Of a DNA stretch of 59,599 nucleotides, positions 29,591-48,729 are shown piece by piece. The stretch is from Thermodesulfobacteriota bacterium (lineage in GTDB: Bacteria > Desulfobacterota > Desulfobacteria > Desulfobacterales > B30-G6). Where the stretch lies: assembly GCA_039714495.1 (NCBI GenBank), contig JBDLJD010000004.1, positions 1-59,599 on the forward strand, given 5' to 3'. The position numbers and the translations under genes were made by a program. The notes below the pieces were generated by a model that was not told where the DNA came from, did no database searches, and saw only the letters and a program-made list of their open reading frames with translations. Each line of letters starts with the position of its first letter. The stretch's first letter is position 1.

Positions 29591-29777
29591 AATGCATTCG
29601 TGCTATTTTGGCTACTCGACCCATTTGGGAAGAATTTGTTGGAAACCTCTTCCCTTCGGAAGAAACTACACAGCTAAAATTATTGTCCTTCCCGTTTCCA
29701 TCTCAAATTCCGACATGTGACATGACGAAGATCATAAACATATTCATTCCCGAGAGGGATAAAACCTACCTTATGCA

Positions 29778-30566: not shown

Positions 30567-31180
30567 AAATCATATACCTTCAATAGCAGTTGCATACGCT
30601 TTTCGAGTGCTTTGATACGAAAACGCGCCATAAATGATTCCATTTTGGCAAGATTCAAATCCTCATGCAGAATATCCCTATCAAGCCGAAGTTCGGCAAT
30701 TTCATCTTCTGTTTTGTAAAATGGATATAGATAGAGTAGATCCAGCAATGCTTTTTCCCGAGTGGCATACGGTATAGTACGACCGCCCGCCAATGGGTGC
30801 GGGACATATCCGAACATTAGATCATCCCGGACGCTCTTATACGAATATTCACCAAAGTCGTTCCTGAATACAGCCGTCTTTAGAGATGTCACACTGGTAA
30901 TCTGGACAACGCCCTCTGGAATCAATTCGTAAAATGAAAGTGCCGAGTGCAGGCTGATATACGACGGATTATACATCCTGCCGGCAAAATATGCAGAACT
31001 GCCGGGCTTGCTTTTGTACTCAGGAAAGGCATAGAATCCCCGGCGCAAGCGTACCAGATACCCTTTGCGGGTCCAGCGCACGAAATTATTACGGTCAAAC
31101 CGCGGCTGCCAGGCATAAACCTGATGAATACTAAAACAGCCGAGATCAAACATCCTGTTTTTGAATTCTATCCAATGCAT
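30563..31180 (-). CDS. abiEi: AbiEi-family antitoxin
   Basis: N-terminal wHTH 'LVRLRRGFY', SYISLHSAL..Y.LIPE, EKALLD; ATGA overlap with the toxin. Confidence 0.88.
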   Translation of the reverse strand: MHWIEFKNRMFDLGCFSIHQVYAWQPRFDRNNFVRWTRKGYLVRLRRGFYAFPEYKSKPGSSAYFAGRMYNPSYISLHSALSFYELIPEGVVQITSVTSLKTAVFRNDFGEYSYKSVRDDLMFGYVPHPLAGGRTIPYATREKALLDLLYLYPFYKTEDEIAELRLDRDILHEDLNLAKMESFMARFRIKALEKRMQLLLKVYDL

Positions 31181-31181
31181 A

Positions 31182-31231
31182 ATTTATTTCCGAAATGCAT
31201 CAAATATACTGCGTTTCGGAAATAAATACAA
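31182..31231 (-). promoter_or_regulatory. abiE promoter with overlapping inverted-repeat operator
   Basis: TTGTAT-17nt-TATATT (31231-31203); 18-bp arms at 31182-31199 and 31210-31227 (17/18 match) surround the -10. Confidence 0.75.
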
Positions 31232-31306
31232 CACGATTCTGCCGGAAAACTGCTTAATCAAGACAGATATGATGTCGCCGTCCTATATATAATGGGGGGT
31301 TAACGG

Positions 31307-31692
31307 CTATAGGCTGCTGGAAACTGCCCAAAACCGCGGCATTCCTACACTGATGTTAACAGCCCATTCACTTAGCTCTGATGCTTTACGCAAATCCATT
31401 CGAGCTGCTACCACCAATTTGTTGTTTTTTTCGTTATTCCATTGGGTGTCGTTCCATGCGGCACCTGCTGAATAATCGGTCGAAAACATCATATCTTCTG
31501 TAGCGTAACCACCCCAGTAGCATGAACACCGGTTTTTTTTGCGAATAGGCGCGCTGTCTTGGGATCAACCTGATCAATGACATGGACTTTACCTGTTACC
31601 ACGGCGGTTGTCCGCGCGGATACATCTTTGAATGATAAATATGTTTCCGCGCATACACATTCCACCTGATCTCTTTTACAAGCCATCAGCAT
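31307..31692 (-). pseudogene. Remnant of a family-5 ABC substrate-binding protein with internal deletions
   Basis: Fragments 'D..ARTTAV.TG.VH.ID.VDPKTA' and 'MFST.Y..GAAWNDT.W.N...KL...AR' in two short ORFs. Confidence 0.65.
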
Positions 31693-31831
31693 AGATCAAT
31701 AGTACTACAAGATATTAACGATACGAGGCTTGCATTTTCAGCAAGCATGCGATAAGTTTTAGTAACAATATGTGTACGTTGACATATGCTAGCATAAACT
31801 GAATCAACCCATCTTGGATATCGATGATAAT

Positions 31832-32221
31832 ATGACTGATAATAGTTTCACTATCAATACCAATGAAAGCGAGTATAATATTAGTGCGTGTGTAAGACTG
31901 ATTGGCGAAGATGTTCTAGTATCCATCTGGGGAGGAGAGAAACCTCATATTGGGGCCGTGGCTATGGCACAACCGCGTAAAAGCTTAAAAGATGATAGCT
32001 TAACGAGTTCAACTGCCTCGGTATTCACCTATGTGGGACACAAAGAAGACGAACTTGCAAAGGCCGTCTCTGAAATCATGGCAGCAGTTTTGAAAACCAA
32101 AGTAGTGGTTACCGCTGGCATCCATTGGGACAATTTGTCTTCCGGAGGTATCCAAAAAGTGATTCAAAACAGCAAAATACTGGTTGATTTGATATTGGAA
32201 AGGCTGACATCAATTATATGA
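31832..32221 (+). CDS. lpdD: LpdD-like prenylated-FMN chaperone
   Basis: GGEKPHIGAV, GHKED, VVTAGIH motifs; adjacent to ubiX. Confidence 0.75.
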   Translation: MTDNSFTINTNESEYNISACVRLIGEDVLVSIWGGEKPHIGAVAMAQPRKSLKDDSLTSSTASVFTYVGHKEDELAKAVSEIMAAVLKTKVVVTAGIHWDNLSSGGIQKVIQNSKILVDLILERLTSII

Positions 32222-32269
32222 ATAACCAGATTGATGTCAGCAGGATCTGATTAAAAATGAGAGGTATGC

Positions 32270-32836
32270 ATGACCAAACGAATCGTTATCGGCATATCCG
32301 GTGCCAGCGGAGTGATCTATGGGGTGCGGATGCTCAGTGTATTGAAAGATACGGGCTGTGAAACACACCTCATTTTGTCCGAAGCAGGAAAATTGAATAT
32401 CGAAATAGAGACAAGCTTCAAAGTGGCTGAAGTCGAAGCCATGGCAGACAAAGTATACAGCCAGGAAAATATGGGCGCCAATATTGCATCTGGTTCTTTT
32501 TTAACTCAAGGTATGATTGTGGTACCCTGTACGATCAAGACATTATCCGGTATCGCCAATTCATACAACGATAATCTCCTGGTAAGGGCGGCAGACGTGA
32601 CCCTGAAGGAAAAACGCAAACTAATTTTGGTTGTCAGGGAAACGCCGCTTCATAAAGGACACCTCCGTCTGATGACCATGGCGGCTGACATGGGCGCACA
32701 CATTCTACCTCCAGTCCCCGCTTTTTATCACCAGCCCAAAACAATTCAAGACATCATCGATCAAACCATCGGTAAAATATTTGACTACATGGGCATCGAA
32801 CACGATCTTTTCATGCGCTGGGGCGAAGGCAAGTAA
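32270..32836 (+). CDS. ubiX: Flavin prenyltransferase UbiX
   Basis: GISGASG, IASGS, RAADVTLKE, RETP, PAFY. Confidence 0.95.
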   Translation: MTKRIVIGISGASGVIYGVRMLSVLKDTGCETHLILSEAGKLNIEIETSFKVAEVEAMADKVYSQENMGANIASGSFLTQGMIVVPCTIKTLSGIANSYNDNLLVRAADVTLKEKRKLILVVRETPLHKGHLRLMTMAADMGAHILPPVPAFYHQPKTIQDIIDQTIGKIFDYMGIEHDLFMRWGEGK

Positions 32837-32960
32837 CACGCAATTTCTGATTGACCGTCCAACTCTGTTTAAGCCCTAATTGTTTTGATTGTGTTCATAG
32901 AGCCTTGCTTGATTTTTTTATCCTTGGCAAAGTAAAACCACCGCCTAAGGCCAGGTATAA

Positions 32961-33081
32961 CTAGTAGAAACTGAGATAGGTAAATGCGTTTTTATTCTCA
33001 GGCGAATTGATGGTGACCCAAACGATACCGGTGGCGTCCTCCTTTTGGTAGCGTATCTTTTTTAAATTTTTCCGGGTTCAT
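32961..33081 (-). pseudogene. Frameshifted N-terminal remnant of an enoyl-CoA hydratase/isomerase
   Basis: GGAG RBS and ATG at 33081; removing one A from an A6 run gives MNPEKFKKIRYQKEDATGIVWVTINSPENKNAFTYLSFY*, a crotonase-like N-terminus. Confidence 0.65.
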
Positions 33082-33152
33082 ATTTATCGCTCCCTGATCT
33101 GGTTTGGGCGTTTATTTGTGCTTTAAGCTTTTAACTCCCCCGAGATGGATGG

Positions 33153-34529
33153 TCAATGTAATGTCAGAGTTTGAAACAATTCACGAGCACTGTCGGCTGC
33201 CAGTTCTGCCCCAATTCCATGTCCGCCTGCCTCGGCACTGGCGAAGAACAGGCCTTCCAATGGCGATGTTACTGATGGTCGACGTTCATGGATTTGGTTC
33301 ACAGATTGGGCTACACCAATGACATTTCCGTCCTCCCCGGCATATGTGTTAACGAGGTCGGGGGTGTCAACCTTGTGCCAAAGGACTTTTCCTCTGGCCT
33401 GCGGATAAACCGTATAAAATGAACGAAGCAACGCCTCCTCCCATTTTTTCCAGTCTGCCTTTCGTGGACAACCAGTACCAAAAAATATGAGCTGCCTGCC
33501 CTCAGGAGCCAATGATGTGTCATAGTTGGTCGGAGAGGTGATCATCCCCCGCATCAGTTCCGGTATTTTTCCATCCATCTTGTCCGATTCGATCTGCCGA
33601 GACTTTTCAAAATCATACGGCATATACATCATCAGTTGATCGTCGGTGATTTTTTCCTGCAAGGCTACCTTCAATCCAATCACGTGGTAGGCATAGCTCA
33701 AATTCCGAATAGCTTCCAGATAGTCCGATGAAAAGTGCTCCTCACCGACTAAATCCAAAACTGAGGCCTTAATATCGGCATTGCTGATAATGACGGGAGC
33801 CTTGACCTTTGATCCGTCTTTCAGCTTAACGCCGACGGCTTTGTGGTTTTCAACAATGATTTTTTCTACCCTCGTTCTAAGCTTAACCTCGCCGCCTAGC
33901 TTTTTCACCGCCGTTAGATATGCTCTGGGAATGGAAATACACCCCCCAACAGGGTATGCACTACTCCGGGCCTGCAGCACCTCCCTAAAACATTTAACAA
34001 ATTCTGCGGTACTGCTGGCGTTGTCCCGTACGCAAAAATACTGCGAACTGATGCGCTCAATAAAGGCATGTACCAAGGGATGGTCGGTAAATTGAGAAAG
34101 CCACGCATGAAGCGGGATGTACCACAGCGTGCTGATTTCTTCCTGAGGCATGGTTACTACAGCCTTGAAAAAGCGTTCCATATTCTGTTTTTCTTTGTCT
34201 GGAAGCTCGGCCGTTAGGTTTTTTCGAGAATACTTCATAACTCGGTCTTTCAGTCTCAGGATCGCTGAATTGATGGTAACCCACTGAATAGCATCCGGTC
34301 TGCCGATCCGGCGGCAGATGTCGCCAAGGGCGCCACGATTGCCGACCCCGAAAAGGTGAATCCCCAGATCCACAGTAAATCCATCTTTCGCGTAGGAAGT
34401 GCAGCGTCCCCCAACAATTTTATTCTTTTCTATAATCAGTATCTTCCAGCCTGCATGGGCTAGTAATGCCCCTACGGCAGATCCGCCAATTCCGCTACCG
34501 ATAATGATCGCATCAAAATCATGGTTCAT
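33153..34529 (-). CDS. Phytoene-desaturase-family (CrtI-like) FAD oxidoreductase, copy B
   Basis: GSGIGG, EK...VGGR, DLGIH, YPVGG, SLAPEGRQL, GG.G.ELAA.S. Confidence 0.88.
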   Translation of the reverse strand: MNHDFDAIIIGSGIGGSAVGALLAHAGWKILIIEKNKIVGGRCTSYAKDGFTVDLGIHLFGVGNRGALGDICRRIGRPDAIQWVTINSAILRLKDRVMKYSRKNLTAELPDKEKQNMERFFKAVVTMPQEEISTLWYIPLHAWLSQFTDHPLVHAFIERISSQYFCVRDNASSTAEFVKCFREVLQARSSAYPVGGCISIPRAYLTAVKKLGGEVKLRTRVEKIIVENHKAVGVKLKDGSKVKAPVIISNADIKASVLDLVGEEHFSSDYLEAIRNLSYAYHVIGLKVALQEKITDDQLMMYMPYDFEKSRQIESDKMDGKIPELMRGMITSPTNYDTSLAPEGRQLIFFGTGCPRKADWKKWEEALLRSFYTVYPQARGKVLWHKVDTPDLVNTYAGEDGNVIGVAQSVNQIHERRPSVTSPLEGLFFASAEAGGHGIGAELAADSARELFQTLTLH

Positions 34530-34562
34530 TTTTATTCCTTAGCAATAGCCAACCGCCAGGTA

Positions 34563-36122
34563 TCAATGCGTGTTGACGGTCTTATATTGTTCTCTGAGTT
34601 TGAACTTCAAAACTTTTCCTGTTGCATTTTTAGGCAAGGAATCTACGAATACGACCGACTTCGGTTTCTTGTAACTTGCCAGGTTTTGCCGGCAGTGCTC
34701 AATGATTTCAGGCTCCGTCGCCTGATACCCTTCTTTAAGCACAACAATAGCCTTGACCGCCTCTTCCCACTTGGGATCAGGAACGCCGATGACGGCGGCT
34801 TCGAGCACTGCAGGGTGGCTGTATAGTGTTTCCTCAACTTCCACGGCATAGATATTTTCCCCACCGCTAATAATAATATCCTTCAGGCGATCCACAACAT
34901 AGATAAAGCCCTCTTCATCCGCTTTTACAAGGTCGCCGCTGTGAAACCAGCCATTTCGCATTGCTTCGGTAGTGGCTTGCGGATTTTTGTAGTATTCCTT
35001 CATCACAGTCGGTCCCCTGTAAATAATTTCTCCAACCTGCCCCTGGGGTACGTCGTTGTCATGCGTGTCGACGATTCTGGTCTCAACTGTGATGCAGGGT
35101 CTGCCAACCGAACCTTTTTTTCTGAGGACATCTTCCGGTTTCAAGGTCGTTGCCACCGGCCCCATCTCTGTTTGACCAAACGAATCTGATAAGCGGGCAT
35201 TTGGGAAGTACTCCAGTATCTTCGATTTGACACTAACAGGCATGATGGAAGCCGCTGTCAAAGCCCGCTTCAATGATGATGTATCATAATCAACTATTTC
35301 GGGTGTTTCCAGGAGCTGAATCCACATGGCCGGGACCAATAAAAGGTAGCTTACTTGTTCCCTTTCAATCAGGTCCAGTGTTTCTACCGGATCAAATTGA
35401 TCCGTTATTATAAATGTGCCACCAACCAGTAATATCTTTAAAAACGTACTTAGCCCTCCTGCATGAAACAGCGGTACTGAGCATAGGCACCGTTCATAAG
35501 GCGTACCGGGTATCTCCAAGGTGGTGATCAAGGCATTCAAGAGCAAATTCTTGTGCGTCATGACAGCGCCTTTGGGCTTTCCGGTTGTACCGGAGGTATA
35601 CAAGATAAAAGCCGGATCGTCATCTTCGATAGGAACCAAAGGTTCGGAACTTTCGAAAGAACTCAGAAAGTCCTCATAGTTTCTCGTTTTCTCGTCTTCA
35701 CTGCCACCGACACAAATTTGGGCCTCGATGTTCGCAAACTGATCGCTGACGGAGTGAACCAAATCCAGAAACGACTGTCCGAATATTAGGAGACAGGCAT
35801 CAGAATTATCAATCTGATAAGCGATCTCCGGCCCTGCCAATCGGAAGTTTAAAGGTACTGCAACAGCCCCCAGTTTGCAGATGGCACAATAGCATTCGAT
35901 CATCTGGTTACAGTTTGTCATCAATAGTGCCACTTTGTCAGACCTGCCGATACCAAGCGATTTCAAACCGTTCGCCAGACGGTTGACCCGTTCATTCAGA
36001 TCCCGGTATGTGTAGCGTTGTTCCTTGTACACCAGGGCCTCTCGCGCCGGTTCTTTCCTGGACCAGCGGGCCAAAAACTCGCCGATCACCAGCTGTTTTG
36101 ACAGCATTAACTGAGTTTCCAT
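34563..36122 (-). CDS. Long-chain acyl-CoA ligase (AMP-binding)
   Basis: YTSGTTGKPKG, FGQTE, WFHSGD, DRLKD...GGEN, PKNATGK. Confidence 0.93.
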   Translation of the reverse strand: METQLMLSKQLVIGEFLARWSRKEPAREALVYKEQRYTYRDLNERVNRLANGLKSLGIGRSDKVALLMTNCNQMIECYCAICKLGAVAVPLNFRLAGPEIAYQIDNSDACLLIFGQSFLDLVHSVSDQFANIEAQICVGGSEDEKTRNYEDFLSSFESSEPLVPIEDDDPAFILYTSGTTGKPKGAVMTHKNLLLNALITTLEIPGTPYERCLCSVPLFHAGGLSTFLKILLVGGTFIITDQFDPVETLDLIEREQVSYLLLVPAMWIQLLETPEIVDYDTSSLKRALTAASIMPVSVKSKILEYFPNARLSDSFGQTEMGPVATTLKPEDVLRKKGSVGRPCITVETRIVDTHDNDVPQGQVGEIIYRGPTVMKEYYKNPQATTEAMRNGWFHSGDLVKADEEGFIYVVDRLKDIIISGGENIYAVEVEETLYSHPAVLEAAVIGVPDPKWEEAVKAIVVLKEGYQATEPEIIEHCRQNLASYKKPKSVVFVDSLPKNATGKVLKFKLREQYKTVNTH

Positions 36123-36135
36123 ATGATCTCTCATT

Positions 36136-38076
36136 TTAATTCGTGGATTGAAATAGACGCTTGGTGGCGAAATGCGACATTGCCCCTGCAAGGACAAGTC
36201 CCAGACCGATGTAATCCGTTATGCTTCTAGGATGGAAGATGAGGACACCAGCGGCGATGAAGATAAGGCGCACCGGCCATGATATTCTTTTTAGAAAAAA
36301 AACATATCCTTCAAAGCCGGCGCTTAAAAGAATAATACCGATGGCCGCCGTGCCCATGGCCTGGAGTATTTCCAGGCCGGTTCCGTGCCCTACCAGAGCC
36401 GGGTTGTACACAAAGAAAAACGGTACCAGCAAAGATACAAAGCCGAGCTTCACCGCCTGGTTGGCTGTTTTCACAGGATTGGCCCCCGCGATGCTCGCAG
36501 CTGCATAGGCGGCCAGGGCCACAGGAGGGGTTATATAGGACACCGAGCCCCAGTAAACAAGAAAAAGATGGGCGGACATTTCGTGAATGCCCACATCCAC
36601 AAGCGTAGGCGCCAGGAGCATGGCCAGAAAAATATAGCACGCCGATATAGTCAGCCCGATACCCAGTAAAAAACTGGTGACAGCGCCGAGAATCAGGAGC
36701 AAAAACATATTTTCCCCGCCCAGTTGGGTCAGGGTCCCGGACAACCCGTGGGCTGTGCCGGTCAGTGAAAGGGCCCCGATGATCATACCCACGCCCACCA
36801 GTATCCCCATAAGCTCCGATAATATTCTTCCGGTTCCATCCACAAGCTGTGTTACGGTCGCCAGTTTGAACCTGGTTTCCTTGCGGAAGTTTCCCAGAAC
36901 CAGAAGGGCAGCTGTGGCGTAATAGGGTGCCAAGGCCTCCATTCGGTGAAAAAAGATAATATAAACCAGGAGGGCCAGCGCGGCAATGTAGAACCAGCCC
37001 TCCTTAAGAGTTTGTGCAAGAGAGGGCAGCTCCTCCTTGGGGAGTCCCTTAAGATCCATCTTGGCGGCATAAAAGTCAGTCTGGGCAAAAAGGGAGAGCC
37101 AGTAAAGGAAAATCGGCAATGCGGCAGCGATACAGACCTGGGCGTAGGATACACCAATGAATTCCGCCATGATAAAGGCCGTAACACCCATTACGGGCGG
37201 AGTGAGCACCCCGCCTTTGGAGGCGCAGGCTTCAATGGCGGCAGCGTAATAAGGTGGATAGCCCAAACGCTTCATGGTGGGTATGGTAACTGCGCCGGTG
37301 GTGACAACGTTGGCAATGGCGCTGCCGGACATGGTGGCGAAGAAGGCACTTGACAGGATTGAGACCTTGGCAGCCCCACCCCTGACCCCGCCCAGAATGG
37401 AAAGACAGAAATTGATGAAAAAATTTGCTGCTCCGGTTACCTGAAGGGCTACGGCAAAGATCATGTATCCTATGAGTAATCTGCAAAAAACCCTGGTTGG
37501 AAGTCCGAATATGCTCTCTGAGCCCATCATATGGAAACCCAGAATACGGGCGAGGCTGTATTTCTTAGCCAAGAGTATTCCAGGGCAGAGATGAGCAAAC
37601 AAAGGATATACGGACATCAGCAGTATGATAGAAGCCAGCAGAGCCCCCCCGGTTCTTCTGACGACTTCGATCACCAATACCCATGTGATGGCAGCAAGGA
37701 TCATCCCGACCAGAGGTGGAGCGACATCCCATCCCTTCAGGATGATATTCATATTATTGATGATAACGTAAGCGGGCCCGAAAAGACTGGCAATGGAGAG
37801 CAGCATATCATACCATGGGACTCGATCTCGGGGAGACTTTTCAGTCGCGGGAAAAATCAGGAATGTTAACGAGATAAAAGCCGCAATCATAACTGCAAAA
37901 TAGGACAGCTCCGGCATTACAAAGTTGAATAGCGCGATTTTAAAGATAAAGACAAAAGAGAGAAGAATGGCAAATGCTGATACAAATAGAAAATAGACCC
38001 TAAAAATGCCTTTAAGTGTTCTATATCTGCCTGTTTGTTTACTGATAGATGTCTTCTTGTCCGGATCTTTACCCAT
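36136..38076 (-). CDS. TRAP transporter fused 4TM/12TM permease
   Basis: Polytopic membrane protein; SGSAIANV.TTG, PPVMG, ITPPVAL. Confidence 0.93.
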   Translation of the reverse strand: MGKDPDKKTSISKQTGRYRTLKGIFRVYFLFVSAFAILLSFVFIFKIALFNFVMPELSYFAVMIAAFISLTFLIFPATEKSPRDRVPWYDMLLSIASLFGPAYVIINNMNIILKGWDVAPPLVGMILAAITWVLVIEVVRRTGGALLASIILLMSVYPLFAHLCPGILLAKKYSLARILGFHMMGSESIFGLPTRVFCRLLIGYMIFAVALQVTGAANFFINFCLSILGGVRGGAAKVSILSSAFFATMSGSAIANVVTTGAVTIPTMKRLGYPPYYAAAIEACASKGGVLTPPVMGVTAFIMAEFIGVSYAQVCIAAALPIFLYWLSLFAQTDFYAAKMDLKGLPKEELPSLAQTLKEGWFYIAALALLVYIIFFHRMEALAPYYATAALLVLGNFRKETRFKLATVTQLVDGTGRILSELMGILVGVGMIIGALSLTGTAHGLSGTLTQLGGENMFLLLILGAVTSFLLGIGLTISACYIFLAMLLAPTLVDVGIHEMSAHLFLVYWGSVSYITPPVALAAYAAASIAGANPVKTANQAVKLGFVSLLVPFFFVYNPALVGHGTGLEILQAMGTAAIGIILLSAGFEGYVFFLKRISWPVRLIFIAAGVLIFHPRSITDYIGLGLVLAGAMSHFATKRLFQSTN

Positions 38077-38151
38077 AGCATTGATTTCTCATTCGCAATC
38101 TGGCCTGATGGAAGCAAAGTAAAAACTCCATCAGCCTAGCGGTGATCGCAA

Positions 38152-38185
38152 CAAGGGGTTGGAAGTGAGTTCGACCAACCCCTTG
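38152..38185 (-). terminator. Stem-loop after the TAXI gene (terminator or mRNA stabiliser)
   Basis: CAAGGGGTTGG-N12-CCAACCCCTTG. Confidence 0.5.
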
Positions 38186-38211
38186 CCGTTCCGTTTAAAC
38201 CCAACGGTTTA

Positions 38212-39267
38212 CTATTTAAAAGCCGCTGCTCTGGCTGAATAGTCCTTTAGCTGTTTTTCCTGCCATTTATCCATGTCCGCAGACCAGACACCGGCCTCTT
38301 TGAAATACCGGATGGCGCCAGCATGATATGGCACCGGGCTGGGATCTTTAGCAGCCTGTTTGATATTCCAGGCTGCCATGGCCCGATGCATTCCTTTGTA
38401 AATATCGAAACCTTCATGTATGGCCTTAACCGCAGCATATATAATGTCCGGATCGGTGTGCTCATAAGCCCATAGGGAATAGGGGTAAGCCAGGATTTCC
38501 ATGGTCTGGCCCTCTGGCAGCCCCGGGGCCCTTTTGGCTACTGTCGGTTTCATCCATGGGGCAAACTTTTGCAGTCTGGCCCAGGCGTCTTTCTCACTAT
38601 GAGGCAATAGGACCCATCCGGCCTTGTGTGGCCCGGCTTGAATCTCTTTGACGGTGGGGGTAACGGTTGCAGCCAGGGCGGCGTCAACGCGTCCCTCTAT
38701 GATTCCTTTTAAGGTGTCAATATATCCGGAGCAGACAACCTTGGTAACGTCATCCCAGGTAAGATTGCCAAAGGCCAGAATACCCTCTGTTCCCAGGGAG
38801 ACTGCAGGCGATCCGGGTATAAAGGCGACTCTCTTCCCTTTCAGGTCCTTGGGATGTTTAATACCGGAATCTCCCCGGGTCACCAAAGCCATCCGTACGC
38901 TCATCCCTCGCCATACCTGCCTTAATGGCTGGGGCCCCCACTCCTTGGTAGCGAACTCGGCAATTCCATGGCTGACACATGTGCCTGTGGCCCCGGTTGC
39001 CAGGGTTATCTCGCTCTCCTTATTTTTGAGGGGAAGAATTCTTGAGACATCCGTACCATAAGGTTCGACACGGACTTTCATGGGTGTCTTTTTTTCAATG
39101 GCCTCCCTGAATCCGCTGGTGATAGTGTAACCAAGGGACCCCACTTTAAAAGAGGTAAAGGTGATTAATTTGGGAAGATCTTCTGCTGACGCTTGCGGAA
39201 TACTTTGCATAAGCAATGTGCCGCAAAAGAAACAAACAGCCAATAAGATGAAAGCGGTTCTTTTCAT
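38212..39267 (-). CDS. TAXI-family TRAP solute-binding protein
   Basis: Signal peptide, DLKGKRV, PYHAGA.RYFKE; adjacent fused permease. Confidence 0.92.
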   Translation of the reverse strand: MKRTAFILLAVCFFCGTLLMQSIPQASAEDLPKLITFTSFKVGSLGYTITSGFREAIEKKTPMKVRVEPYGTDVSRILPLKNKESEITLATGATGTCVSHGIAEFATKEWGPQPLRQVWRGMSVRMALVTRGDSGIKHPKDLKGKRVAFIPGSPAVSLGTEGILAFGNLTWDDVTKVVCSGYIDTLKGIIEGRVDAALAATVTPTVKEIQAGPHKAGWVLLPHSEKDAWARLQKFAPWMKPTVAKRAPGLPEGQTMEILAYPYSLWAYEHTDPDIIYAAVKAIHEGFDIYKGMHRAMAAWNIKQAAKDPSPVPYHAGAIRYFKEAGVWSADMDKWQEKQLKDYSARAAAFK

Positions 39268-39340
39268 TTTTTTCTCCTTTTTAAATGGGGGGTGAAAGAG
39301 CTCCCCCCGCGTTTAAATATGTTGTCGCGCCTCCTTTTTC

Positions 39341-39748
39341 TCATGATTTTTTAATCACTTCGACAAATCCCTGATCAGCATCCACAATAACATAGTCCCC
39401 TGTTTCTATAACATCCAAGGGATTTTTCTCCAGTTGGTCCATGGCAGGTATATCAGCTGTCAAGATGGCTGCTGCCAGAATCGGCTCGATCTCGCCAATG
39501 ATCATGGCTTTAGGTAAATTATTGTTCAGCTTTGCTACATAGCCAACTCCGGGCCCGGCACTGGATCCTTTTCCCGTGGGACACACAAATATTTTATCAA
39601 CCAAACTCTGGCCGTAAAGTTCGTGGTTAGGCGAAGGAACCTTTCCGGTTGCCGGATCTATCTCACCTAAAAAAGAAAAAGGCGTTCTGGTGACTATCGC
39701 TTCCCCTTCGGCCTTTCCGGGGTTTACTGTCCTGCCTTTTAATTTCAT
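39341..39748 (-). CDS. Aconitase X swivel (small) subunit, DUF126
   Basis: G.AEGEA, SFLGEIDP.TG, GKGSS, AIL.DIP. Confidence 0.9.
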   Translation of the reverse strand: MKLKGRTVNPGKAEGEAIVTRTPFSFLGEIDPATGKVPSPNHELYGQSLVDKIFVCPTGKGSSAGPGVGYVAKLNNNLPKAMIIGEIEPILAAAILTADIPAMDQLEKNPLDVIETGDYVIVDADQGFVEVIKKS

Positions 39749-39749
39749 G

Positions 39750-41012
39750 CTACTCCTCCCACTTCCTTGTAATGGCGGCACGTACACATTTTTTCATATC
39801 CCCATATAAGGTCTTGGTATTCCCGCCACTCATTCTTTGTATATAATGGGCCGCTCGGACCGAATTTGTAGCTGCGGCAATCCTTGACTCATTTTCCAGA
39901 AAACAGAAAGGGTTTACGGCGCCTATGCAACAGTCTAAAATTTTAGCCCCTGCCTTCTCAATAATCTCGGTATATCCTGATTGTTTTGCCAGGGTATAAG
40001 TTGGTTTTGAAATCCCAACCGCCAAGACAATATCCGCACTCACTTTTTTCCCATTGAGCATTGAGGCCAATTTGCCTACCTCCCTTATTGTAAGATGGGG
40101 GCAACCGATCACGACCATGTCCAAGTCACTGCGCCTGGCGTCATTTAGTATCCCATAGCTTTCTCTCATCTCTTTATTGGTAATCAGCAAGGTTTCCGGT
40201 TTGTTGTCACCAACGGCCTGCTCCAAAGTATTGGCCTCGGGCGTTACACCGATTACATGGCACATAACGCATGCCCCGGAAACGGGAAGAGGGGAAACAA
40301 GAGCCCGCGCATTTTCCAAGGATACATATTGAGGGAGACCCTCTATGGCCACATTTTTCTGACCAACCAAACCACCGATAGCATAGGCCAGAGCCCCGTA
40401 GTCTGCCTCGGTAAAGCCAGCTGGGTTTAAGCTTTTATCCACTTTTATAACAACTTCTGCATACCGCTCCTCTTTCCTTAATAGACCCATTAGTGGCGTT
40501 CGACCTGTTATAGCGGCCGCAAAACTTGTGCTGACAGACTCTCGTCCCGCTCTAGCGCCAAAGAAAGAGTTGGACAACGCCTGCCCGGATGTGCCCGTCA
40601 GGCACAACACATCGCCCGGCTTGGGTATAAACCCAATCGTATAAGGGCTACAGGTTGAAGTGGGCAGGACATCTAATTGCCTTAAAAGTTTTAGCCTTTG
40701 TTCAACTATTTCCTCGTCAACTTCACTGTATCCGCCCAATCTGCGTTTAATGACCACACCGTGCTTTTCTCTCCAATACCGCGGATTGTAGGTTGCATGC
40801 AGCGTCGTTGTCGCCCGCATCTTAGGCGTACCTTCCGAGAATTCATTTACCGCTTCGGACGGGTAGCTGATGCTTAAATGAGCCTGGTCTACTCTGACCA
40901 TTCTTTCTGCATCGAAAAGTCTTCCCCATTGAACCAGAAGCTTCATGGATTTCCGAGTTCCCGGCCCATAATGCCCGTCAAGCATTTTTTTCTCTTCATC
41001 AGTCAGCTTCAC
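39750..41012 (-). CDS. Aconitase X catalytic (large) subunit, DUF521
   Basis: GTG start after GGAG; LT.EE..ML.G..G, TC.PY, NS..GAR, H..GVTPE, GCPH, DCC, TNS...AHY. Confidence 0.9.
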   Translation of the reverse strand: MKLTDEEKKMLDGHYGPGTRKSMKLLVQWGRLFDAERMVRVDQAHLSISYPSEAVNEFSEGTPKMRATTTLHATYNPRYWREKHGVVIKRRLGGYSEVDEEIVEQRLKLLRQLDVLPTSTCSPYTIGFIPKPGDVLCLTGTSGQALSNSFFGARAGRESVSTSFAAAITGRTPLMGLLRKEERYAEVVIKVDKSLNPAGFTEADYGALAYAIGGLVGQKNVAIEGLPQYVSLENARALVSPLPVSGACVMCHVIGVTPEANTLEQAVGDNKPETLLITNKEMRESYGILNDARRSDLDMVVIGCPHLTIREVGKLASMLNGKKVSADIVLAVGISKPTYTLAKQSGYTEIIEKAGAKILDCCIGAVNPFCFLENESRIAAATNSVRAAHYIQRMSGGNTKTLYGDMKKCVRAAITRKWEE

Positions 41013-41020
41013 AGTATCTC

Positions 41021-42391
41021 CTACGGTAGTATCGCATTCAGTTCCAAAGCACTCATGGCTGCCAGTTCGGTGCCAATTCCCCATCCGCCTGCCTCAGCAC
41101 CGACAATGAACAGATTTTCGATGGGTGTTCTCTGGTTTAGTCGCTTGCTGCCGACCTGATCAATCGACTGTGCCATGCCAATCACGGCGCCGTTTTCGCC
41201 CATGAGCTTATCAACCGTCTCCGGGCTGGTATCTTCGACGAACAGAATCTCATCCTCGATATCCGGGAAAATATCCTTTACGGATAACATCACAGACCGG
41301 TGCCAGGCCTCCCAATTCGGTTTTATAGCTGGAAAAGAGCCGGCGATGATCAGTTGGCACCCGTCCGGCGCAGTCCCCGGAGCGAAATTGGAGATAACCG
41401 GTATCATAAGATTGACCCGCTCGGGCACCTTGCCGTCTTCGATCATTTCCAGATATTCGGTGGCGTTCGGATGCCCGATATGCATGATGAATTTTTCATC
41501 GGTGATCTTGCGTTTTAGGGCTATTTTCAGCAGATAGGCCCCTGCCGTGAACTCGATATCTTTAATTTTCTCGATATACTCTTCCGGAAAATGGTGATCG
41601 TCCGCCAACTGTAGTACCGTTATTTGGGGATCAGCATTACTAATAACGACATCAGCCTTGATAATTTCATTGGAATCAAGAACGACACCTGTAGCTTTTC
41701 CGTTTTTGAAAATAATTTTATTTACCTTTGTCCTGGTACACACTTCACCGCCATTATCGACGACGATCTTAAGATAATTTTCCGGTATAACCATGCAACC
41801 TCCGACCGGATATCCCGATGCCCTGTTTTTGGCCTGGGCCTGCATGGAACGTATGAACTCTCCGGCCGATGCACGCCAGTAAGGAATGATGAAATAGAGT
41901 TCGGCAATATAGGCAAAGATGTTGTGGATCATCTGGTTCGATGTATGAAGGCTCAACCACTCTTTTAGACCGAAATGGTTCATTTCCAGGGCCTGAGATT
42001 CCGACATTGTGACAATCGTCCGAATAATTTGTCGATAGTTCTCCAGATCCGCACCAAGACGGTCGATCCGATGTGGGAAATCCACCATAGACCCCATGTA
42101 GCTCAATTTCTGGGTGGGATTACGCGTATAGGACCATTCGATGAGTTGCGTGTCGTCTCTGCCACACTGTCGAATCACCTCTCCGAGCGGGCCCTTACCG
42201 GCCTGTGAGAAGGTATGCACTCCAAGATCCAGTGTAAACCCTTCTCTTTTCCGGCTGCAGCATCTACCCCCGACATATCCAAGCTTTTCCAGTACCGTGA
42301 CTCGGTATCCCCGGCTTGATAGCATGGCTGCAATGGCAGCACCGCCGATGCCGGAACCGATCACGACCACTTTTTTATCTGTAGTTGTCAT
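41021..42391 (-). CDS. Phytoene-desaturase-family (CrtI-like) FAD oxidoreductase, copy A
   Basis: GSGIGG, EK...VGGR, DLGVH, YPVGG, APDGCQL, GG.G.GTELAA.S. Confidence 0.88.
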   Translation of the reverse strand: MTTTDKKVVVIGSGIGGAAIAAMLSSRGYRVTVLEKLGYVGGRCCSRKREGFTLDLGVHTFSQAGKGPLGEVIRQCGRDDTQLIEWSYTRNPTQKLSYMGSMVDFPHRIDRLGADLENYRQIIRTIVTMSESQALEMNHFGLKEWLSLHTSNQMIHNIFAYIAELYFIIPYWRASAGEFIRSMQAQAKNRASGYPVGGCMVIPENYLKIVVDNGGEVCTRTKVNKIIFKNGKATGVVLDSNEIIKADVVISNADPQITVLQLADDHHFPEEYIEKIKDIEFTAGAYLLKIALKRKITDEKFIMHIGHPNATEYLEMIEDGKVPERVNLMIPVISNFAPGTAPDGCQLIIAGSFPAIKPNWEAWHRSVMLSVKDIFPDIEDEILFVEDTSPETVDKLMGENGAVIGMAQSIDQVGSKRLNQRTPIENLFIVGAEAGGWGIGTELAAMSALELNAILP

Positions 42392-42426
42392 AGTCTTATC
42401 ATTCAAGAAGAGTCTTTACTGATCTA

Positions 42427-43932
42427 TTATGGTTTTCCAAGCCCGTCGCTTTCCCAGTTCTCCAACACCCGTTTCATGATATCGTCATCCATCACAACCA
42501 GCCCGGGGCGTTCACGGGTGTAGTTTTCCTCCTTCCATTTACGTGTTGCATCAATACCGAGCCTAGCACCCTCACCCCGGGGCGACATAGCCGGATGTTC
42601 CAGATCCTGTTCCACCTTATCCGAGATCAACAGATCCTGGTTTGCCCGGGTGTGCATGGAGAAGGCCCACATCACTTCCGAGAGGTTATGCACATCGATA
42701 TCTTCATCCACGACAATGACATTTGAAATAAATTTGGACTGGCCGCGTGCCTTCCAGATACGCTTGATCATTTCCTGTCCCTGATAGGGCCGCTCCTTTT
42801 TGATGGAAATTGTCATCAGGTAAAGTGATGCTCCTTCCGTCGCGAAGCTCATATCGACGATATCCGAATCAAGGGCGTTTTGGATGGCCATAGTGACCCT
42901 TTCTGCAGCTTTGGACATATAATGGATTTCCGTGACCGGTTTTCCGGTGGTTGCCATATGCCACAGGGGATTTTTGCGGGTAGTGATGCGCTGAATCTCA
43001 AAGACAGGCGTTTGTTTCGGAGGGGAATAGTACCCGTGGAATTCGCCAAACGGCCCTTCTTTGGCACGAATGCCCGGCTTGATTACGCCTTCCATAACGA
43101 TTTCGGCACTGGCGGGTACCGGTAGATCGGAAAGATCTGCCTTGACGACATCTATTCCCCTGCCTTTCAGCAGACTTGTGAAAAGAAATTCATCCAGCGG
43201 CGGCCGGAGCATGAAACAACCGGAAGCAGCCAGTCCCGGGTCGCAACCCACCACTACGACTACCGGCAGTTCGATACCCAGCTTTTCAGCCGTCTGCCAG
43301 TGGTTGTGGCCATGTTTGTGGGGCAGCCAATGCATGCAGGTTTTGTTTTTGTCCAGGTACATCATGCGGTAGGTCCCCGCATTCAATTCCCCGGACTCTG
43401 GATCGCGGGTGATGATCAGCGGCATGGTCACAAACCGGTCCCCATCCTCTGGCCAAAGCTTGGTCAGGGGAAATTTTCCAATATCGATTTGATCACCCGC
43501 GTACACAACCTCCTTGCAGGGGGCCCCTTTCACCTCCACCGGATAATACGGTATAAATCCTCTATATTTCTTCAGCCGGTCCTTAAGCGGTGCATACATA
43601 AAAGACTGTTCAAGCTGTGCTTCCTGGGAAGTGTCCAGCGTTTTTCCCATGTCGGTAAACCCGTTTTTCAACTTTTCACAAGCATGGGGGAAAAAATTGT
43701 CTGCCCCAAAGCTCCACGCAACCCGCTGGTGGCTGCCGTACAGGTTGCCGAGAACCGGCATGTCGGATCCTTTCACGTTTTCAAAAATTACCACCGGTCC
43801 TTCCACACGGGCCAACTTATCGACAATTGCATTAATTTCAAGTACCGGGTCCACCTTGCGACGGATCCGCACCAACTGTCCCTGCGAATCCAGAAAATCG
43901 ATATACTCCCTAAGATCTTTAAAATTTTTCAT
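42427..43932 (-). CDS. ubiD: UbiD-family prFMN-dependent (de)carboxylase
   Basis: DLREY...L...GQL, N.GTYR, EGPFGEFHGYY, VVDEDIDV, GIDAT; substrate unknown. Confidence 0.93.
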   Translation of the reverse strand: MKNFKDLREYIDFLDSQGQLVRIRRKVDPVLEINAIVDKLARVEGPVVIFENVKGSDMPVLGNLYGSHQRVAWSFGADNFFPHACEKLKNGFTDMGKTLDTSQEAQLEQSFMYAPLKDRLKKYRGFIPYYPVEVKGAPCKEVVYAGDQIDIGKFPLTKLWPEDGDRFVTMPLIITRDPESGELNAGTYRMMYLDKNKTCMHWLPHKHGHNHWQTAEKLGIELPVVVVVGCDPGLAASGCFMLRPPLDEFLFTSLLKGRGIDVVKADLSDLPVPASAEIVMEGVIKPGIRAKEGPFGEFHGYYSPPKQTPVFEIQRITTRKNPLWHMATTGKPVTEIHYMSKAAERVTMAIQNALDSDIVDMSFATEGASLYLMTISIKKERPYQGQEMIKRIWKARGQSKFISNVIVVDEDIDVHNLSEVMWAFSMHTRANQDLLISDKVEQDLEHPAMSPRGEGARLGIDATRKWKEENYTRERPGLVVMDDDIMKRVLENWESDGLGKP

Positions 43933-44094
43933 CTTGTATCCATAAAAGACATGATGGTTCAGTGCAGCCGAGGTTAGTTCCCATGACACCCGTAAAATGC
44001 CTGGAGATAATCCATCTCCGGGTGATCAAATATTTTATGGTTTGCAGCTTTCTCTCGCTGTAACAATCATTTCCGTAGTGTCCACCCTGTTGAT

Positions 44095-44110
44095 TGCACA
44101 TTTTGTACCA
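44095..44110 (-). promoter_or_regulatory. Sigma-54 (-24/-12) promoter of the ubiD operon
   Basis: TGGTACAAAATGTGCA with exactly 10 nt between GG and GC; divergent from a sigma-54 activator gene. Confidence 0.8.
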
Positions 44111-44163
44111 AATTTTATATTTAATAATTTCAATAAGATATATTGACGAACGCCTCCCTGCGC

Positions 44164-44194
44164 GAAATGTCGCATAAAATTATTGCGACATTTC
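44164..44194. promoter_or_regulatory. Candidate enhancer (UAS) palindrome for the sigma-54 activator
   Basis: GAAATGTCGCA-N9-TGCGACATTTC perfect 11-bp arms; related GCGATATATCGC near 44215. Confidence 0.65.
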
Positions 44195-44316
44195 AAACAT
44201 TGGGCTAACATAAAGCGATATATCGCAATTCAGCAGCTGAGGGCTGCCCCACATTTTGTTTCCTGGCCGGATTTTTACGCTCCGATTGACTGCAAAAAAA
44301 AACGAACGGGTGAATC

Positions 44317-45897
44317 ATGAAAAAGATCGACAAGAACGACTTCTTTCGACGGGCAGCCATGCAGCTTTGCGGAAACCTCGATATCGACCAGGCAATGTTT
44401 CATTGCCTAAAAATCATCAAGGAGTATATTCCCGTTGATTTAATGGTTCTGTCTATGACGGAAGTCGGACTCAGGGCCATCAGGCGCATAGCGGTAGCCA
44501 CACAAACCGAAGCCCATGCATTGAACGACCTGCTGCCGATGAAAGCCGAGGGTGTCATGGCCATACTGGAAGATGCATTGCCGGATTTCAGAATTATCAA
44601 CGACCTGGGAAAAGATCCGGTTACCTATGCTACATTTGCCATGCTTGAGCAGGAATCTTCGATCCATCACTATACACCCTACAAAGACATGTGGGATTCA
44701 TCTATGATGGTCATGGTCCTGTCAAACCAGCAAAAAAAACTCGGTGCCGTAACACTGCGCGCCAAGGGAACTGGACGATATCGCTCGGAGCACCTCGAAC
44801 TTTTCTCCCTGCTTCATGAACCTTTCACAATCGCCCTGTCGAACACCCTTCGCCACCGGGAACTGCAGCAGCTAAAAGAAGTACTGAAAGAGGAAAACCA
44901 ATATCTGTATCAGGAGATGTTGAACCTGTCCAATACGGAAATTATTGGCTCATACCTTGGCCTGAAGGGAACCATCGACATGGTGAAAAAAATCGCGCCC
45001 TTCAGCGGCCCCGTCATTTTGTTAGGAGAAACCGGGGTTGGAAAAGAGCTGATAGCGAACCTGCTGCATCATTCATCTAATCGGAACGATCGCCCATTTA
45101 TCAAAATGAACTGCGGTGCGATTCCAGAGAACCTGATTGACAGCGATTTATTCGGGCATGAGAAAGGAGCTTTTACAGGGGCAACCTCCCAGAGACGGGG
45201 ACGATTCGAGCGGGCCCATGGCGGATCCATTTTTCTTGACGAAATAGGAGAATTGCCGCTGCAGGCTCAGGTCCGGCTTCTAAGAGCCATCCAGTATGGA
45301 GAGTTTGAGCGTGTGGGCGGAACCAGAACCATCTCTGTTGATACCCGTATTATTGCTGCGTCCAACCGCAACCTGTCGAAAATGGTCAAAAAAGACCAAT
45401 TCAGGGAAGATCTATGGTATCGATTGAACGTGTTTCCGATTACCATACCACCCTTGAGAAACAGAAAAGAAGACATTTCCCTGCTATTGAATCACTTTGT
45501 CAAAGTCAAATCCAGATCGATAGGGATTTACCCGATACCCGAAATTGACTACTATGCGATTGACCGGCTCAAGGCTTACAACTGGCCCGGTAATGTCAGG
45601 GAACTCGAAAACGTCGTTGAGCGGGAGCTGGTATTGTCCAGGGGAGGAACCTTGAAATTCGACCGCAGTTTTCTACCTGAAGTCGATACACTGGACCATA
45701 CTGATGTGCCGCCTGAACGAGAATCAATGCGATTGGACGACGTTGTCGCACACCATATCAGGCACATCCTCAAGTTGGCTGGTGGTCGTGTCAACGGACC
45801 GGGAGGTGCCGCCGACCGCTTGGGTATGAAATCGGGCACCTTGCGGTCCCGAATGGACAAACTGGGCATCCAATACAAAAAAAAGGAACATAGATAA
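44317..45897 (+). CDS. Sigma-54-dependent transcriptional activator (GAF-like sensor, AAA+, HTH)
   Basis: GETGVGKE, GAFTGA, FLDEIGE, FREDLWYRL, WPGNVRELEN, C-terminal HTH. Confidence 0.95.
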   Translation: MKKIDKNDFFRRAAMQLCGNLDIDQAMFHCLKIIKEYIPVDLMVLSMTEVGLRAIRRIAVATQTEAHALNDLLPMKAEGVMAILEDALPDFRIINDLGKDPVTYATFAMLEQESSIHHYTPYKDMWDSSMMVMVLSNQQKKLGAVTLRAKGTGRYRSEHLELFSLLHEPFTIALSNTLRHRELQQLKEVLKEENQYLYQEMLNLSNTEIIGSYLGLKGTIDMVKKIAPFSGPVILLGETGVGKELIANLLHHSSNRNDRPFIKMNCGAIPENLIDSDLFGHEKGAFTGATSQRRGRFERAHGGSIFLDEIGELPLQAQVRLLRAIQYGEFERVGGTRTISVDTRIIAASNRNLSKMVKKDQFREDLWYRLNVFPITIPPLRNRKEDISLLLNHFVKVKSRSIGIYPIPEIDYYAIDRLKAYNWPGNVRELENVVERELVLSRGGTLKFDRSFLPEVDTLDHTDVPPERESMRLDDVVAHHIRHILKLAGGRVNGPGGAADRLGMKSGTLRSRMDKLGIQYKKKEHR

Positions 45898-46045
45898 AGA
45901 TTGCATCAAATTCGTGGAATGCCTCCCGGTTAGGACTTTATAGTTATGTCTTTTTCTCATAAAGAGCTAAAACTCATCATTAACCACTTACACAACAGAA
46001 TCTTCAAGTCATGATTTCGTTGCCTTATCACTTAAGCTACCCAAC

Positions 46046-48454: not shown

Positions 48455-48470
48455 TTTATACAGATATTGT

Positions 48471-48557
48471 AATTACGCTCCGCTGTCATTTGCTTCGCGT
48501 CATTAGGGCTTCGCCCGACATTAGCGCTGACGCGCGGTATTACGCTTCGCTGATATT
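48471..48557 (-). repeat. Array of GNA-loop mini-hairpin units (reverse orientation)
   Basis: The minus strand reads as AAT.(A/T/C)C-stem-GAA/GGA/GTCA-stem units, e.g. AATGTCGGGCGAAGCCCT. Confidence 0.75.
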
Positions 48558-48598
48558 TATTGTTGCAGATAGCTTGAGGCCGATAGTGACAATAAATT

Positions 48599-48670
48599 AA
48601 TTACGCCCGAAGGGCAAATGACGTGCGAAGCACAAATAACGGCCGAAGGCCTAATAACGCGCGAAGCGCT
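48599..48670 (+). repeat. Four 18-bp tandem units AATNAC-[4-bp stem]-GAA-[stem]-W
   Basis: AATTACGCCCGAAGGGCA / AATGACGTGCGAAGCACA / AATAACGGCCGAAGGCCT / AATAACGCGCGAAGCGCT. Confidence 0.9.
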
Positions 48671-48729
48671 AATTGAATCTGTGCAATCCGTGTTATCCGT
48701 GTCAAATAATCCTTATTCGATGTTCATTT

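Follow-up and report, generated by a model that had tools for sequence, protein, structure and literature searches.

The AcnX, UbiD and UbiX families make up operons for the modified mevalonate pathway found in archaea (excerpt of PMC10040528), in whose lower part a 3-hydroxy acid is dehydrated to a 2-enoic acid and then decarboxylated by an enzyme that uses prenylated flavin mononucleotide (prFMN). Characterised AcnX enzymes use aliphatic 3-hydroxy acids (excerpt of PMC8184944), whilst LpdD has been described with gallate decarboxylase and as rare beside UbiD (excerpt of PMC10865409). Here we analyse a locus at which AcnX and UbiD are encoded in a single bacterial operon, together with two CrtI-superfamily flavoproteins, an AMP-forming acyl-coenzyme A (CoA) ligase and a TAXI-TRAP importer. 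It lies in a stretch of 59,599 nt (contig JBDLJD010000004.1, assembly GCA_039714495.1) from an uncultured marine Thermodesulfobacteriota bacterium of the Desulfobacterales lineage B30-G6; this whole stretch is referred to as the window and all coordinates are window positions. A first annotation made from the DNA letters (the sequence-only reading) had called the route undescribed, and our literature searches likewise turned up no account of such a set of genes. With moderate confidence, we take the locus to encode an inducible route that breaks down an acid, hydroxy or enoic and perhaps with a methyl branch, which is taken up from outside. Built from known kinds of enzyme, the cluster is of interest mainly for its bacterial pairing of AcnX with UbiD and for an altered AcnX active site, an interest tempered by its single, island-borne occurrence.

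Genes were called from an open reading frame (ORF) listing and from family scans (Pfam and NCBIfam, with curated cut-offs). The two agree on the eleven-gene layout first noted: an eight-gene operon on the minus strand, a divergent activator gene and a convergent lpdD-ubiX pair, all intact. From position 43989 (or 43932) to 33153 the operon encodes, in order, UbiD, CrtI-like protein A, the large and small AcnX subunits, the TAXI solute-binding protein, the TRAP permease, the ligase and CrtI-like protein B. The UbiD start is probably at 43932, because the database record is of 501 amino acids (aa). Reading frames overlap at crtIA/acnXL, acnXL/acnXS and TRAP/ligase, and none of the eight operon genes or three accessory genes is shortened in comparison with its homologues. 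Frames that overlap or lie close together behind one promoter region are suggestive of selection to express the genes together.

The AcnX large subunit was aligned to that of the Thermococcus enzyme TkAcnX (7cnr) and read against the residue list in the excerpted text of PMC8184944. The cluster cysteines C145, C328 and C386 are invariant in all ten sequences aligned. At the active site, however, the window protein has Gly164 in place of Glu129(L) of TkAcnX, Thr in place of Ser130(L), Arg in place of Lys361(L) and Ser in place of Asn53(L), and in its phosphate loop the residue equivalent to Gly48(L) is missing. This Gly plus Arg type is found in four of the ten large subunits (the window protein and those of loci L001, L002 and L003); the other six (L004-L007 and two paralogues on contig C86 of the same genome) are of the Glu-Ser-Ser-Ala plus Lys type, as are both solved enzymes. 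The window protein scores about equally against TkAcnX (148 bits) and hydroxyproline dehydratase (129 bits), and the scores of 179.4 and 55.6 bits against NF051439 (LhpI) fall below its equivalog cut-off of 700. As judged from these residues, the enzyme is probably active on a substrate that differs from that of either characterised AcnX.

The best relative of the AcnX (56% identity) is found in an uncultured Desulfobacterales genome. Amongst four annotated loci of AcnX relatives, two have TRAP importers (L003 and L005) and one an ABC binding protein (L001). Locus L003 combines a DctP/DctM TRAP system with a Gly/Arg-type AcnX, a ligase 39% identical to that of the window and a MaoC hydratase. 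By gene content, then, the AcnX relatives look to sit in catabolic clusters with importers. The LhpI system is comparable in that its two-subunit AcnX is likewise encoded next to a solute importer and has a regulator of its own, but the Gly/Arg sub-clade of the window lacks the Glu-Ser-Ser and Lys residues common to both solved types. The two AcnX pairs on contig C86 (L108:3101-19075), which are canonical, lie back to back, surrounded by genes for two LarA-like proteins, an aminotransferase, an amidohydrolase, an SBP5 protein, a urocanase-like protein, an MFS transporter, an FAD-linked oxidase and an amidase.

The UbiD protein carries all three domains of its family (PF20695, PF01977 and PF20696) and passes the general UbiD model only, falling below the equivalog cut-offs for MqnL (TIGR03701, 349.3 bits against 495.9), E. 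coli-type UbiD (NF008175, 316.2 against 788) and VdcC. Its closest match is E. coli UbiD (292.7 bits, in a comparison that included no archaeal anhydromevalonate-phosphate decarboxylase sequences), and it also matches PDB entry 9gqr ('decarboxylase', 134 bits); the family scan brought up no curated model for the archaeal decarboxylase. The sequence-only reading had likened the locus to the archaeal mevalonate module and had also raised the prospect of clustering with MqnL-type or mevalonate enzymes. The comparison weakens both: the UbiD is under the MqnL cut-off and closest to the E. coli protein, and the AcnX lacks two residues with which the phosphomevalonate dehydratase contacts its substrate. 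What is left in common is reaction logic, namely the dehydration of a 3-hydroxy acid to a 2-enoic acid and prFMN-dependent decarboxylation, which the two systems plausibly share.

In a large protein collection the clade around the window UbiD is made up of 22 full-length metagenomic proteins (59-86% identity), none of them characterised; beyond it lie a group at 44-52% and then, at around 40%, proteins named as MqnL or UbiD. All 22 clade members share the motif E292-G-P-F-G-E297, the counterpart of which in E. coli UbiD is EGPYGD; we take the motif to belong to the catalytic Glu-Arg-Glu network. Such a network is named for UbiD enzymes in an excerpt of PMC5818171. The contexts of two distant members, L024 (48%) and L031 (45%), were inspected and set aside as unrelated and uninformative.

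UbiD, UbiX and the LpdD-like protein are each encoded once in the host genome, all three at this locus, which implies that the cofactor unit serves this UbiD. The LpdD-like protein far exceeds the PF21758 cut-off of 27 bits, matches solved LpdD (8po5, E value 1.1e-5) and is encoded next to ubiX; it is a chaperone candidate, predicted to bind prFMN. The locus thus resembles described UbiD/UbiX/LpdD systems (the LpdBCD gallate decarboxylase, E. coli UbiD, MqnL) in co-encoding a UbiD with the catalytic motif, a UbiX and an LpdD-like protein, but differs in that lpdD-ubiX forms a separate convergent unit and in that the UbiD reaches none of the three equivalog cut-offs (UbiD, MqnL, VdcC).

That the two flavoproteins are 'CrtI-like', as first proposed, holds at the level of the superfamily. 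Only the model PF01593 was passed; against TIGR02734, with a cut-off of 238.1 bits, proteins A and B score 111.5 and 99.3. They are 36% identical to each other. The wider CrtI-like family includes limonene dehydrogenase CtmAB and the sterol delta-24 desaturase, each a heterodimer of two diverged flavoproteins, which attack allylic positions when isoprenoids are degraded anaerobically (excerpts of PMC4109377 and PMC11061730). The window pair is alike in comprising two diverged paralogues of the same broad superfamily in one catabolic operon of an anaerobe. However, the flavinylation motif G-F-[LR]-x-[NS]-[TL]-H-A given for those enzymes in the excerpt of PMC11061730 is absent from both A and B, which are also about 100 aa shorter and encoded by non-adjacent genes; by these features of motif, length and gene position the pair does not belong to that subgroup. 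Instead the proteins read GFTLDLGVHT and GFTVDLGIHL; the motif G-F-x-x-D-x-G-x-H is found in both and in eight of ten related loci, with Cys for Phe in L104 and DF for GF in L107. Structure prediction of an A-B heterodimer gave a score of 0.00, which is evidence neither way, and a protein atlas placed A in generic 'phytoene desaturase-like' clusters, with no function attached. Orthologues of B adjoin DUF1329 or DUF3187 genes. These we take to encode outer-membrane proteins tied to hydrophobic substrates, so that the contexts of the B orthologues give a weak pointer towards such substrates.

The best family and structure matches of the ligase are fatty-acyl types, the nearest solved structures being FadD5 (8r2q, 376 bits) and then feruloyl-CoA synthetase (8wev, 332 bits). 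The TAXI protein is weakly similar to solved TAXI proteins (49 bits). TAXI-TRAP systems import carboxylates and amino acids, and di-acids are amongst their known substrates.

Control by sigma-54 had been proposed from the outset and is borne out by the divergent gap, which holds a promoter-type site (TGGTACAAAATGTGCA) and palindromes, and by the PF00158 domain of the activator. The GG-N10-GC pattern has two matches in the window against 0.5 expected, and the weight of the candidate comes from its position, not its rarity. Upstream of it lie a palindrome (GCGATATATCGC) and a perfect 11-nt inverted repeat, for which 0 are expected by chance. A similar sigma-54-type site (GGCACGATAACTGC) precedes the UbiD gene of metagenome locus L018, where the 15-mer GCGATATATCGCAAT and a CGCA-N9-TGCG core also recur. 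The activator sensor domain has no Pfam match, but a model of its N-terminal 200 residues (pLDDT 78) was matched by fold search to GAF domains, including those of the sigma-54 regulators 4g3v and 3k2n; this is a generic GAF fold and gives no clue as to the ligand. Activator homologues account for 33 high-scoring segment pairs (HSPs) in the host genome, which implies the presence of rpoN. The operon is probably inducible and sigma-54-dependent, under the divergent GAF-domain activator.

One other activator in the genome, on contig C77, has the same sensor (37% identity over 194 aa, E value 2e-38). Its gene points away from a cluster that lies behind a separate sigma-54-type site and TACC-N6-GGTA repeats and that encodes two carboxyltransferases, a biotin carboxylase, an enoyl-CoA hydratase (crotonase), an AtuA-family protein (547 bits) and an acyl-CoA dehydrogenase. 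In composition this cluster resembles those for acyclic-terpene or leucine (atu/liu) catabolism, and the paralogy of the two sensors offers a weak pointer to methyl-branched or isoprenoid acids. The C77 cluster is on another contig from the operon, has no enzyme in common with it and is linked to it by regulatory paralogy alone. A MDMPI/DinB-like protein and a TGGCAT-N5-GTGCT site are also found there (L109:1-11979).

The sequence comparisons establish the gene content, the intact state of the genes, the operon structure, the candidate promoter and operators, the dedicated cofactor genes, the island and its mosaic origin. Taken together, these genes suggest a scheme whose every reaction, along with their order, direction and substrate, we infer. 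The TAXI-TRAP system would import an organic acid, which the Fe-S enzyme AcnX, acting as a (de)hydratase on the free carboxylate, would interconvert between 3-hydroxy and 2-enoic forms. UbiD would then strip the conjugated carboxyl group, the lpdD-ubiX unit supplying and delivering the prenylated flavin, and the two CrtI-superfamily flavoproteins would move, add or remove a C=C bond. Finally, the FadD-type ligase would form a CoA ester for beta-oxidation-type steps encoded elsewhere. The likeliest substrates are a hydroxy or enoic/unsaturated di-acid, or a methyl-branched (isoprenoid-type) acid, because one enzyme removes a carboxyl group whilst another activates one and because TAXI systems are known for di-acids. 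The host genome (94.7% complete) encodes a DsrA above the cut-off (610 bits), which makes the organism a sulfate or sulfite reducer, and anaerobic. Of the sequence-only proposal of inducible, anaerobic acid catabolism, the sigma-54 control, the dedicated importer, the dedicated prFMN supply and the dsrA-positive host fit, whilst the proposal as a whole is only partly supported.

Should the genes form one pathway, AcnX and UbiD would for the first time be seen working as a pair in bacterial catabolism, a chemistry so far tied to the synthesis of archaeal lipid precursors. Such a pathway would also suggest functions for the UbiD clade of about 22 members, for the AcnX sub-clade with the altered active site and for the short CrtI-like flavoproteins, which are expanded in one family of sulfate reducers, and would provide a compact, regulator-equipped gene set for anoxic prFMN-based decarboxylation. 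The features of the locus are listed in Table 1.

Table 1 Genes, candidate regulatory sites and island features in the window
Feature	Position	Strand	Evidence
AbiEii/AbiEi-like toxin-antitoxin pair, left island edge	29778-31180	-	PF08843 67.5 bits
Pseudogene debris: receiver-domain-like (+) and SBP_bac_5-like (-) fragments	31181-31813		Six-frame matches
LpdD-like prFMNH2 chaperone candidate	31814-32221	+	PF21758 122.9 bits; PDB LpdD 8po5/8pzh/8p4w
UbiX flavin prenyltransferase	32270-32836	+	NF004685 268 bits (cut-off 188)
Crotonase-like stub, frameshifted and truncated	32964-33111	-	3' end of operon
CrtI-superfamily flavoprotein B, 458 aa	33153-34529	-	PF01593 67.6 bits
AMP-forming acyl-CoA ligase	34563-36197	-	PF00501 + PF13193; PRK06187 546 bits (cut-off 476)
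Fused TRAP permease	36136-38076	-	TIGR02123 579.3 bits (cut-off 320.65)
TAXI solute-binding protein	38212-39267	-	TIGR02122 181.3 bits (cut-off 84.35)
AcnX small (swivel) subunit	39341-39787	-	PF01989 92 bits
AcnX large subunit, Gly/Arg active-site sub-clade	39750-41084	-	PF04412 304.9 bits
CrtI-superfamily flavoprotein A, 456-461 aa	41021-42406	-	PF01593 66.5 bits
UbiD-family prFMN decarboxylase	42427-43989	-	TIGR00148 370.6 bits (cut-off 244.85)
Sigma-54-type promoter candidate, GG-N10-GC	44095-44110	- (operon strand)	Pattern search
Candidate activator sites: perfect 11-nt inverted repeat (44164-44194) and palindrome	44164-44229		Divergent gap, upstream of GG-N10-GC
Sigma-54 enhancer-binding protein, N-terminal GAF-fold sensor	44317-45897	+	PF00158 226.9 bits

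The cluster occupies an island of about 16.4 kb (29575-45936), which stands where a congener (G001) has a different segment of 5.3 kb. Its borders were set by blastn of the 26-50 kb region of the window against contig C94 of G001: synteny is seen at 28203-29574 and 45937-49822 with no match between, and the flanking MipA-like and helicase genes are 81% identical to their G001 counterparts. A DNA search of three congeners left the operon unmatched except for weak stretches in the conserved AAA+ and ligase genes. At the protein level the best UbiD match in G001 is 28% identical, and none was found in G002 (81% complete) or G003 (95% complete). From these comparisons the cluster reads as lying on a strain-specific, horizontally assembled island. 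At its left edge the AbiEi-like antitoxin is a weak call (PF13338 at 22.3 bits, with a cut-off of 25). The pieces of the adjoining debris match other genes of the genome at 36-69% identity over 35-53 aa, the match on contig C86 falling within an SBP_bac_5 gene. The 'dead hydratase' of the sequence-only reading is a real crotonase-like remnant, albeit a tiny one: some 40 codons of the N-terminus with one frameshift, of which 31 aa align at 58% identity with a gene elsewhere in the genome (contig C10).

A number of observations weigh against a single catabolic pathway, chief amongst which is the missing conserved neighbourhood. Among 400 sampled genomes of the phylum, UbiD orthologues (62-66%) are found in six, all of one other family (f78), whilst 40 genomes of the host's own order yielded no UbiD relative above 37%. 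Homologues of AcnX, the CrtI-like proteins, the ligase and TAXI are encoded near none of the six f78 orthologues, nor in the related locus L028. CrtI-like orthologues do occur in f78 (A at 62% and 61%; B at 67%, 56% and 56%), on other contigs and in other contexts, but no other operon gene was found near any of the ten CrtI-like loci inspected. At the seven AcnX loci sampled there is, unlike in the window, no UbiD or CrtI-like homologue nearby. AcnX proteins of the f78 genomes are at most 35% identical to that of the window, and no TAXI orthologue was found in these genomes. The parts therefore appear to come from different gene pools and the cluster is, by these comparisons, a mosaic, with its co-selection as one pathway lacking comparative support.

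To this may be added that the operon includes no dehydrogenase, thiolase or lyase and that its sole hydratase is the stub, so that the description 'self-contained' is not borne out. The debris at 31.2-31.8 kb and the dead crotonase are signs of decay. A search of sequencing runs listed DNA of the window in two, both from a single marine-metagenome study and one of them possibly its source; no RNA run was listed. As for branched acids, the C77 genes match no Atu or Liu equivalog in NCBIfam, the 'Atu/Liu-like' label deriving from the Pfam AtuA match and gene composition; the operator motifs of the window activator and its C77 paralogue differ; and 37% identity between sensors does not imply a shared ligand.

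The nearest relative of the locus points both ways. When the best 16 of 80 metagenome loci returned for UbiD were examined, L018 was the one locus with several other operon genes, L032 having UbiX alone in common. UbiD of L018 is 86% identical to that of the window, the activator 67%, UbiX 69% and a C-terminal 166-aa piece of CrtI-like A 70%, whilst the L018 ligase is unrelated (31%). Since the activator, a similar promoter, the 15-mer and UbiX are all kept with the L018 UbiD, a core of regulator, UbiD and UbiX travels as a unit. L018 has, however, decayed: its CrtI-like gene is cut to the C-terminal 260 aa and an insertion sequence-related zinc-ribbon ORF lies downstream. By eye, the stretch between the sigma-54 site and UbiD (L018:2700-3230) is alpha/beta-hydrolase-like and broken by frameshifts, a further mark of decay.

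The f78 orthologues have a neighbourhood of their own. One set of genes is collinear between loci L028 and L116 and recurs in part at L117 and L118; it comprises a TonB receptor, a different TAXI protein, a TetR regulator, ferredoxins, an Fe-S protein, a QRPTase-like protein and a pair of paralogues. Flanking UbiD, these paralogues (56% identical, 470-630 aa; L028:7435-8847 and L028:11791-13545, also in L116 and L117) have no match in Pfam and no sequence match in the PDB. Together these genes form a UbiD cluster that is conserved and uncharacterised. A 422-aa Fer4 protein of L098, encoded beside a CrtI-like A orthologue, is 27-28% identical to the Fer4 protein that neighbours UbiD in f78; a link through it was rejected, as there are many such paralogues.

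These observations raise the question of whether the genes have a joint function at all. The operon could be a recent or decaying island mosaic, co-transcribed through an accident of rearrangement, which we consider unlikely but worth some weight. It would account for a combination unique in all samples, for parts of different origin, for an island without DNA match in three of three congeners (with other DNA at the same site in G001), for the debris and dead crotonase, and for the visible decay of L018. On the other hand, eight operon genes and three accessory genes have stayed full length, their frames overlap or are closely spaced behind a single promoter region, and the sole UbiX and LpdD of the genome are kept beside its sole UbiD. 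Thus, where the sequence-only reading had foreseen a combination that might prove unique and decaying, uniqueness, strain specificity, debris and a decayed relative were found, whilst the operon itself is intact. Were the cluster a mosaic and nothing else, it would serve as an example of module shuffling on islands.

A route for an aromatic or prenyl-aromatic acid is, in our estimate, similarly unlikely. Here UbiD would decarboxylate an acid of the (hydroxy)aromatic or aromatic dicarboxylic type, either free or as the CoA ester, as happens in anaerobic pathways of the phenolic-acid or phthalate type, with the ligase acting before or after it and the other enzymes trimming a side chain. The closest characterised relative of the UbiD, the E. 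coli enzyme (292.7 bits), is a 3-octaprenyl-4-hydroxybenzoate decarboxylase, and MqnL-type proteins come next (TIGR03701, 349 bits), although both equivalog cut-offs are missed. The association of LpdD with gallate decarboxylase (excerpt of PMC10865409) speaks for the same substrates, as does the co-occurrence of UbiD, UbiX, CoA ligase and TRAP genes in excerpts of the literature on anaerobic phthalate degradation. Whilst feruloyl-CoA synthetase is the second-nearest solved ligase, the best matches are to fatty-acyl types; moreover, the known AcnX substrates are aliphatic 3-hydroxy acids (excerpt of PMC8184944), and the operon has no genes for ring reduction or ring cleavage, the rest of the genome not having been searched for them.

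One further reading deserves mention, improbable as we judge it: an as yet undescribed catabolism of free mevalonate, or a similar 3-hydroxy-3-methyl acid, independently of 3-hydroxy-3-methylglutaryl-CoA (HMG-CoA) reductase, in which the archaeal logic of dehydration followed by decarboxylation would be applied to a substrate without phosphate. An AcnX without the archaeal phosphate and hydroxyl contacts would yield a 3-methyl-2-enoic acid, from which UbiD would remove CO2; the flavoproteins would re-oxidise or isomerise the allylic product, and the Atu/Liu-like carboxylase cluster on C77 would receive from the ligase an acyl-CoA with a 3-methyl branch.

The chance that the chemistry runs the other way is slight. 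UbiD would then carboxylate an alkene or unactivated carbon, AcnX would hydrate the resulting enoic acid and the ligase would activate it. UbiD enzymes are reversible (excerpts of PMC8379154 and PMC7976604), the host is anaerobic, and a sequence from enoate through 3-hydroxy acid to CoA ester would feed beta-oxidation directly. The TAXI-TRAP importer in mid-operon points, however, to an anionic substrate and not to a hydrocarbon. Furthermore, UbiD-type carboxylases of anaerobes are known to come with extra carboxylase subunits or ATP-dependent helpers, and the operon encodes neither.

Compared with the archaeal lower mevalonate pathway, the window likewise has the AcnX, UbiD and UbiX families side by side, with an LpdD-like gene too, but it differs in its Gly/Arg-type AcnX, in a UbiD nearer to that of E. 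coli, in encoding neither mevalonate kinase nor HMG-CoA reductase, and in being inducible, importer-linked and island-borne, and it adds two flavoproteins and a CoA ligase. That the locus is a bacterial copy of that pathway making isoprenoid precursors is suggested by the family content of the archaeal operons (excerpt of PMC10040528), but is very improbable and largely refuted by an AcnX that lacks the Glu129, Lys361, Asn53 and Gly48 contacts of TkAcnX (excerpt of PMC8184944) and scores nearly as well against hydroxyproline dehydratase, by the failure to find HMG-CoA reductase (PF00368, matched in five control genomes) in the host genome, 94.7% complete (no genome search was aimed at mevalonate kinase), by the presence of IspH of the methylerythritol phosphate (MEP) route in the host, and by an inducible, importer-bearing operon with no DNA match in congeners.

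Two further features of the window lie beyond the cluster. A dispersed repeat of about 180-200 bp, containing short GC-rich palindromic units, is found at 48440-48700 with a partial second copy at 51956-52031; it accounts for 38 blastn HSPs in the host genome, and the three congeners give matches by the dozen. Between 48730 and 54109 lie a gene for a DnaE-like polymerase (998 aa, with PHP, pol III alpha and OB domains) and then ORFs of 459 and 271 aa, an arrangement that looks like a mutagenesis cassette of the imuA-imuB-dnaE2 type, of which only the polymerase was scanned.

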